The translations under genes were made by a program, and so were the position numbers. Under the pieces are notes generated by a model. The model was not told the DNA's origin, ran no database searches, and was given only the letters and a program-made list of their open reading frames with translations. Shown in pieces: positions 48,345-49,181 of a DNA stretch of 64,000 bases; position 1 is the first letter of the stretch, and each line of letters starts with the position of its first letter. Source of the DNA: Eledone cirrhosa (taxonomy: Eukaryota); contig OZ024741.1 in NCBI GenBank assembly GCA_964016885.1, forward strand, positions 100,936,001-101,000,000, in the 5' to 3' direction.

Positions 48345-49181
48345 TTATTCTTGTTTTAGTCTAAATATTGAGTTGATGATCATGCGTCGTGCCCGCCGTA
48401 ACATCTTTCGCAACTTTGTGATTTTGTTTCGACAGTGGTTTGTTTTATGGCAGTTTGAAAAGCACCGAAGTTGTTTAAGAATACCAACAACATCAGAAGA
48501 ACAACCATGGGGTTCATTATTATGGTTGCAAGAGATAGAAAATTTAGATTCATTATCTTTAAAGTCATCAGCTACTTGACGGTAAGCAGAAATAGCTAGC
48601 TTGTATAAATAATTCCCAACATGAAGATAGTCCTGGATAACTGTCATAAATGTAGTATATTCACTATGGTTGATGTAGGAGTTTTTATTTTTATCAACTA
48701 ACTCAAAAGTACATATGGCTCTTTTAAGAAACTGAATGAATTCAAACAGGCGCTCTTCAGCCCATTGCAAACGAACTTCTTGTCGACCATGATGATAAAA
48801 GGCTTCAGTTTCAATCTTTTTAATCAAACGTTCTCCAAGAGAAGCAATCACACAACCGACAATAGTTTTCAGAGAAACATCATTAGTGACCACTGGTGTA
48901 GGTAGGATTTGAAACCAGTTATTAGGGGTAGGTTTTAATTTTCCAGGAAAGAAATTATTCACATTTCCCTCAACCATTCTTGAATAATGGTTGTCGGGGT
49001 CCGCTTTTGGCTGAGCTTTGTTTGAGACAAGAGACGTAAGTATTGAGGTCAATAGACCTGAAGTTTTCTTTGCAGTTTCTTCTACAGTTTTACCTGGATC
49101 TTTAGCACGTTCATGTGGGTTATATGCCTCACATCTGAGTAAACCAAGCAGGTAAAATAGAAGTATTATTCCAATATTCAT
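48345..49181 (-). CDS. Predicted secreted 278-aa protein of unknown family with one EF-hand-like loop, a Cys cluster and a basic C-terminal helix
   Basis: 837-nt ORF in AT-rich DNA; hydrophobic N-terminus MNIGIILLFYLLGLLRCEA; splice acceptor (ctttttcag) 7 nt before the ATG; TFELV-DKNKNSYINHSE fits an EF-hand loop. Confidence 0.82.
   Translation of the reverse strand: MNIGIILLFYLLGLLRCEAYNPHERAKDPGKTVEETAKKTSGLLTSILTSLVSNKAQPKADPDNHYSRMVEGNVNNFFPGKLKPTPNNWFQILPTPVVTNDVSLKTIVGCVIASLGERLIKKIETEAFYHHGRQEVRLQWAEERLFEFIQFLKRAICTFELVDKNKNSYINHSEYTTFMTVIQDYLHVGNYLYKLAISAYRQVADDFKDNESKFSISCNHNNEPHGCSSDVVGILKQLRCFSNCHKTNHCRNKITKLRKMLRRARRMIINSIFRLKQE

Follow-up and report, generated by a model that had tools for sequence, protein, structure and literature searches.

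Among described genes, the closest counterparts of the one analyzed here are already listed in RefSeq and UniProt as uncharacterised, namely LOC118765122 of Octopus sinensis, LOC106874618 of O. bimaculoides and CAI9727976.1 of O. vulgaris, to which GAB1601237.1 of Argonauta hians can be added; annotation of these orthologues is automatic only, and LOC106874618 bears the UniRef label 'EF-hand domain-containing protein'. More distant points of comparison are the helical cytokines and chemokines, whose long-chain four-helix representatives (IL-6, growth hormone and leptin type) form an up-up-down-down bundle with long AB and CD loops, the CHH/ITP neurohormones, which have a six-cysteine pattern including CxxC, and secreted EF-hand proteins of the CREC, SPARC and nucleobindin types. 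Growth factors, chemokines and some cytokines typically have prodomains and basic C-terminal helices that bind glycosaminoglycans. The gene under study is represented by an open reading frame (ORF) of 278 amino acids (aa) on the minus strand at positions 48345-49181 of a 64,000-nucleotide stretch of the Eledone cirrhosa genome (contig OZ024741.1; hereafter, the window). This ORF is the main coding exon of one member, paralogue A, of a family best filed as undescribed, coleoid-restricted and of a familiar kind, that of secreted helical cysteine-bearing proteins. As to its role, we tentatively favor, at somewhat below an even chance, a secreted ligand, uncharacterised and restricted to coleoids, whose tail would bind polyanions.

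As claimed in a preliminary description of this DNA, the ORF was the longest in the window, where eight ATG-initiated ORFs of at least 100 aa were present. None of 100 Markov-simulated windows contained an ORF of at least 278 aa (median 125, maximum 186). A first protein search retrieved four relatives among 1162 candidates, with identities of 84% (O. sinensis), 66% (Argonauta), 56% and 51% (two further proteins) over 95-100% of the length, and cluster members added the O. bimaculoides and O. vulgaris orthologues. The orthologues of the three Octopus species were approximately 84% identical to the ORF protein and, like that of Argonauta, had the same cysteines, loop, sequon and tail; the proteins at 56% and 51% are probably decapodiform, by analogy with the branch of paralogue B that holds Sepia. 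Conservation in related species had been named beforehand as a check on the prediction, and orthologues with 51-84% identity were found. The ORF is genuine, intact and conserved. In addition, a 3215-base contig from DNA runs spanned the locus, with 0, 0 and 1 differences across three runs, which represent one sample, possibly the source of the assembly, and are not independent support for the ORF; we read them as genomic DNA because one contig continues across the intron boundary. The single difference, a T for C at window position 48975 in one of the three runs, changes Met69 to Ile, the residue of the Octopus orthologues, and is probably an allele.

The E. cirrhosa genome gave two matches whichever paralogue was used as a query, and no expansion was seen. 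The second copy, paralogue B, lies on the same contig as A, 186 Mb away (L002, in the range G000:C2:286586307-287176), and in three Octopus assemblies A and B were located on contigs of equal length. A profile search returned eight proteins among 5985 candidates, four of them paralogue-type and one cluster including Sepia pharaonis, while an exhaustive hidden Markov model (HMM) search of 1.84 billion representatives gave four matches at E 0.001, three of which were family members. The fourth (P0028), a long repeat protein that is leucine-rich-repeat-like by eye and matched through 17 summed stretches, had an hhalign probability of 0.7% and was rejected. Relatives beyond coleoid cephalopods were not found in the protein, profile and HMM searches. 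None of 127 candidates matched in a search for shorter relatives, longer ones being outside the scope of that search. With regard to a prokaryotic or viral origin, none of 35 viral candidates matched, and a 31-residue match in one of 25 genome candidates, located on the opposite strand to a long, by eye Cas1-like ORF, was rejected. Of the earlier characterization as 'orphan-like, lineage-specific', the restriction to a lineage therefore stood, as only coleoids were found, and the notion of a lone orphan did not, given the orthologues and the paralogue, both of which had been missed.

In a midpoint-rooted tree of 16 selected rows, from which near-identical Logan rows were left out, clades A and B separated at 100/100, each with an octopod branch and a second branch, that of clade B containing Sepia; the window's sequence was placed among the octopods, outside the vulgaris-sinensis-bimaculoides cluster. 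Since both clades comprise an octopod and a second branch, the A/B duplication likely predates the octopod-decapodiform split, which occurred about 270 million years ago. Paralogue B (LOC106868141, LOC115216191 and, in Sepia pharaonis, CAE1297886.1) shares with A 68 of 172 core residues, six cysteines, a signal peptide and a splice acceptor immediately before one long coding exon. Unlike A, it lacks C110 and the EF pattern, has a neutral, hydrophobic tail and carries an RxxR motif, which in B rows follows a poorly conserved N-terminal stretch that can be read as a putative furin-type prodomain. Compared with other B rows, the E. cirrhosa copy of B (L002 2041-2130) lacks two residues and diverges locally just past the last cysteine, and where the loop region begins it has an additional cysteine that is absent in them.

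With regard to gene structure, a pyrimidine tract followed by AG (49189-49190), seven bases upstream of the ATG of the ORF, constitutes an acceptor, and the gene models of relatives carry an extra 12-30 N-terminal residues beyond the start of the ORF. A genome search with a 31-residue extension gave no exon 1 match, and it was direct scoring of the neighbouring 200 kb that located this exon. When the extension was scored ungapped across the window plus the adjacent 200 kb, its best match on the correct strand was in L005 for three of four queries, whereas ungapped scoring of the full-length Argonauta extension did not rank this site. Directly after the match lies a consensus splice donor, in a phase that fits the acceptor and with a heptamer found at just 11 sites along 214,811 bases of its strand. 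Exon 1 is hence positioned 16.3 kb upstream, just beyond the window, in frame and with two in-frame ATGs. Intron 1 comprises 16,283 bases on the minus strand, from 49189 to 64000 in the window and on to a donor at L005 position 1471 (G000:C2:101001471). From the genomic sequence and the gene models of relatives, we infer that the gene is spliced and that the ORF corresponds to its second exon, and this structure with upstream in-frame ATGs is a feature that the preliminary description had missed. On the 3' side, an ATTAAA hexamer 69 bases past the stop (48270-48275, minus strand) and a second hexamer at 47971 (minus strand) are possible polyadenylation signals, identified by motif only in AT-rich DNA.

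Intron 1 also harbors other sequences. Just inside it, window positions 49900-50550 consist of very high-copy interspersed repeats with a summed DNA-run depth above 100,000. An intronless full-length histone H3 ORF (61367-61777, plus strand; Pfam Histone, E 1e-44) lies on the opposite strand within the intron, immediately following a TG microsatellite; because several normally invariant positions are substituted, it is probably a pseudogene copy.

The product of the ORF is probably secreted, as had been proposed. The predicted signal peptide (residues 1-19; 49125-49181, minus strand) coincides with the N-terminal hydropathy peak of 1.67, the next one being 1.45 at residues 97-115, and the predicted cleavage after CEA at residue 19 is supported by this peak and by its context, an Ala followed by Tyr-Asn-Pro in 10 of 10 orthologue rows. 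The two in-frame ATGs of exon 1 make a longer isoform possible, and in that isoform the hydrophobic stretch might act as an uncleaved anchor of a type II membrane or secretory-pathway resident protein; the basic N-terminal extension that these ATGs would provide is also present in the gene models of four relatives. We regard this as very improbable, given the shortness of the hydrophobic stretch, the conserved small-residue cleavage context that comes after it, the annotation in two species of shorter isoforms beginning at the ORF's own Met and the lack of a KDEL-type end.

Both paralogues share the same overall anatomy: they begin with a hydrophobic stretch and a variable region, continue with a stretch that is conserved (residues 79-102) and have three long helices and six cysteines. 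The 79-102 stretch (48876-48947, minus strand) is a signature of the family, kept in A and B according to alignments, and was modelled by AlphaFold2 with a predicted local distance difference test (pLDDT) value below 50. The model of the full chain reached a pLDDT of 50 and a predicted template modelling score (pTM) of 0.50, and that of residues 70-278 a pLDDT of 64 and a pTM of 0.62, with values of 64-88 for the blocks of the three helices. In the latter model, helices were predicted at residues 104-129, 134-164, 173-203, 234-244 and 248-277. The first three (residues 104-203; 48573-48872, minus strand), which include C157 and, in A only, C110, would form an antiparallel bundle, as suggested by AlphaFold2 and the structural search. 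The predicted fold thus starts with a three-helix bundle of a generic type, continues with a cysteine-rich segment and ends in a long helix at the C-terminus.

No known family accounted for this arrangement. Pfam gave no family at the gathering cut-off, and no enzyme family, for any of 23 members; NCBIfam gave none for four of four proteins; the best hit of a PDB sequence search was KChIP1 at E 0.19, via the loop, and a profile search there gave none; an Atlas search with paralogue B gave no usable match. Together with the lack of a significant Foldseek match, this bears out the earlier statement that no family could be recognised. The top structural neighbour was a dust-mite group 5/21-type allergen (2lm9, Z 9.8, root-mean-square deviation 3.2 over 95 residues), and another, Der p 5 (3mq1), was at Z 8.0; both are three-helix bundles of similar length. 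Their identities to the ORF protein were 14% and 6%, their scores were in the generic range, and they have no cysteine-rich and tail regions. They would suit a secreted structural or carrier protein, such as a matrix, egg coat, spermatophore or lipid-binding component, with amphipathic helices that bind lipid or polymerise and a tail that binds acidic polysaccharide. This explanation appears unlikely to us, because the Z values were tied with those of dynein (9.7), spectrin repeats and designed bundles. Moreover, the ORF protein has no repeats or low-complexity blocks, and its core helices are modestly amphipathic (0.21-0.38).

Cysteines occupy positions 17 (within the signal peptide), 110, 157, 218, 227, 240, 244 and 250, so that the counts given previously, seven in the mature protein and five in residues 218-250, were right. 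The five-cysteine segment (48432-48530, minus strand) is common to A and B according to the alignments, and together with C157 it provides the six cysteines found in both paralogues, which we suggest are joined in three disulfides. C218 was aligned in all 11 rows of one alignment and was one column off for four rows in another. In the larger set of 23 aligned rows (9 A and 14 B, many near-identical and not independent), C110 was kept in 9/9 A rows and aligned with Leu in 14/14 B rows. Because Leu replaces it in paralogue B, C110, which sits in a hydrophobic helix, is probably buried and free, and the earlier idea of dimerisation through the odd cysteine lost weight. A relationship to CHH/ITP neurohormones found little in its favor, as only the spacing C-x12-C-x3-C was common to both, no CxxC occurs among the cysteines of the ORF protein and no such Pfam family was detected at E up to 1 in the 23 members.

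The C-terminal tail (residues 251-278; 48348-48431, minus strand) is, from its sequence and the model, a cationic amphipathic helix of net charge +10, conserved in A; the 11 Lys/Arg that had been counted in these last 28 residues, RR included, are present. The net charge was +10 to +13 and the hydrophobic moment about 0.7 in four of four A rows tested, versus a net charge of 0 to +1 in the two rows of paralogue B tested. It is also the best-conserved part of the protein in distant orthologues, with an identity of 20/25 (80%), whereas the core reached 98/166 and 90/166 (54-59%; p 0.033 and 0.011 in post hoc Fisher tests). Such a helix, attached or clipped off, could disrupt membranes, and A might then be a membrane-active effector in defence or in a gland, for instance an antimicrobial, mucus or salivary protein, with which the tail charge of +10, a hydrophobic moment of 0.73 over the best 18 residues, a mature isoelectric point of about 9.4 and the presence of RR at 262-263 in 9/9 A rows are compatible. 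However, this dibasic site is located mid-helix, where cutting would split the helix, its RxxR form is missing in 3/3 Octopus rows, and A rows showed no conserved dibasic site before the tail, where a convertase would have to cut to free the peptide whole. The release of such a cationic peptide, which had been put forward earlier, is therefore unlikely. Membrane-active defence or gland effectors usually diversify and expand, whereas here the tail is under strong conservation, just two genome copies were found and the tail of paralogue B is neutral. With two stable copies per genome and such conservation, a venom or antimicrobial effector would fit less well than a ligand, and we judge the membrane-active alternative unlikely overall.

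A further proposal concerned calcium, based on an EF-hand-like loop at residues 163-174 (48660-48695, minus strand). All its reported traits are there, namely the F at -4, the S that occupies position 6 and the NHS sequon (N171), and a single stretch matched Pfam EF-hand_1 at E 0.0032. It resembles the canonical EF-hand (PF00036) in its ligand-like residues 1, 3, 5, 9 and 12, F at -4 and flanking helices. D163, N165, N167, I8 and E174 (loop positions 1, 3, 5, 8 and 12) were kept in 5/5 octopod A rows, and Atlas features pointed to EF-hand clusters at 0.81-0.86, which is below 0.9 and serves as a lead only. The preliminary description had accordingly envisaged a possibly calcium-regulated secreted protein, in which the single hand would be paired by a homodimer, possibly with a C110 disulfide, C110 being present in all A rows; odd EF-hands can indeed pair by dimerisation (PMC5983762).

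Several observations weakened this model. The Pfam score was 17.4 bits against a cut-off of 25.4, with no partner hand, and the EF pattern was found in 5 of 23 aligned rows, all of them octopod A orthologues, and in none of the 18 others. Position 6 was Ser in all five rows, while Gly6 is described as critical for high-affinity calcium binding (PMC5983762). The sequon at loop position 9 was better conserved than the calcium ligands (14/23 rows, including 9/9 A rows), and six residues of the loop and the following helix were deleted in 4/9 A rows. Canonical hands are paired, reach the Pfam score and have short, approximately perpendicular E and F helices; the modelled helices that flank the loop are about 30 residues long and superpose on antiparallel bundles (pTM 0.50-0.62, shallow alignments), and no EF-hand protein was named among the 50 matches listed by the wide structural search. 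Calcium regulation through a dimer is consequently quite improbable in our opinion, also in view of the replacement of C110 by Leu in B. We read the loop as a putative glycosylated surface turn, with N171 predicted to be glycosylated, and either a relic of an EF-hand or a weak site confined to octopods; it is probably not central to the protein. The database label 'EF-hand domain-containing' thus rests on a motif that most family members do not have.

The secreted ligand was favored because the family is small, stable and conserved and has no catalytic signature, and because of the prodomain in B and the constrained basic helix in A; the intact ORF, its conservation, the paralogue pair, splice signals, six shared cysteines and conserved tail were observed directly, and the functional steps, receptor binding and matrix retention among them, are deduced. 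A would be a secreted, glycosylated, disulfide-stapled helix bundle that engages a receptor as a cytokine- or growth-factor-like ligand, and its cationic C-terminal helix may tether it to polyanions, e.g., heparan sulfate, or to cell surfaces. B would be activated or released by furin removal of its prodomain, while in A, which has no furin site, the tail would serve to keep the protein in place. Whether relic or octopod-only low-affinity site, the loop that resembles an EF-hand would remain outside this core mechanism. The likeness to helical cytokines and chemokines is an analogy, based on a secreted, helical, disulfide-bearing protein with a basic amphipathic C-terminal helix.

A series of observations weighs against this interpretation. 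There was no sequence match and no significant fold match to cytokines: three Foldseek searches, two against PDB and one against BFVD, gave no matches at E 0.001, and placental lactogen appeared only at E 2.1 with a template modelling score of 0.21. The wide structural search, performed with the core model only, returned generic three-helix bundles, the best Z of 9.8 being within the range that the tool regards as generic for such bundles, which extends to about 13, and its matches mostly spanned model residues 33-143, with the cysteine-rich and tail parts barely covered. Since the three consecutive helices are joined by links of only 4-8 residues, they fit the connectivity of the long-chain four-helix cytokines poorly. 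The cationic amphipathic helix fits a membrane-active protein equally well, and if translation began at the conserved in-frame ATGs upstream, the signal peptide could become an anchor. For octopods, a role in calcium binding is conceivable given the rarity of the EF pattern among 100,000 shuffles (0.13% in a loose form, 0.008% with F at -4 and E12) and the retention of the loop at 12/12 positions in Octopus rows and 10/12 in Argonauta. Such shuffles, however, underestimate what chance can produce, since the hydrophobic residues on either side of the loop are part of helices conserved family-wide, and invariant 12-mers are frequent among the Octopus rows (34 of 247).

In a bolder version, which we put forward as an unlikely extension, A and B are a signalling pair invented by coleoids, with a combination of folds not yet in PDB and duplicated before the octopod-squid split, in which B is furin-switched, A is helix-tethered and octopods alone have, by retention or gain, a loop that senses calcium at the tip of the A bundle, the whole representing a new ligand-receptor system behind a coleoid-specific trait. 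In the literature covered, no report was found under seven family identifiers or six family motifs, nor by topic. The family was not found in the portions considered of the supplementary tables of PMC9712504, PMC9815951 and PMC10138644 (a skin-mucus peptide table), and the portions considered of PMC13193013 contained nothing on this gene. Cephalopod genomes include many unexplained lineage-restricted genes, among which A and B stand out as a family of only two genes, small enough to be tractable and retained in both of the major coleoid branches; the two copies differ in clear, testable ways (prodomain versus cationic tail, loop present or deleted). A ligand would be a new extracellular signal in animals with a thinly known cytokine and hormone repertoire; a gland or matrix protein would be a modest addition. 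Overall, the preliminary description was confirmed in its observation of the ORF and listed motifs, and partly supported in its interpretation.

Other features were noted in and around the window. About 86 kb upstream of exon 1, at L013 7957-8880 (plus strand), an open frame of 308 codons contains a protein kinase domain (Pfam, E 5e-27). Exon-sized frames of neighbouring genes were located at L017 1346-2302 and L020 6514-7806 (both plus strand) and, on the minus strand, in L021 and L023; among such frames, one matched SPATA7/HSD3 (E 3e-11), and a serine-rich repeat frame matched LbR_Ice_bind, which is probably compositional. Retroelement-like frames of 1198 and 1051 codons, by eye similar to long interspersed nuclear elements (LINEs) and long terminal repeat elements, start at L012 5506 and L023 5185 (both plus strand), respectively, in the upstream 200 kb. 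Within the window, a 127-codon ORF at 14090-14473 (plus strand), with no Pfam match, looked by eye like a decayed LINE endonuclease fragment, and two tandem arrays were identified, one at 17253-17526 (91-base unit, 3 copies, 96%) and another at 11543-11704 (48-base unit, 3.4 copies, 72%).
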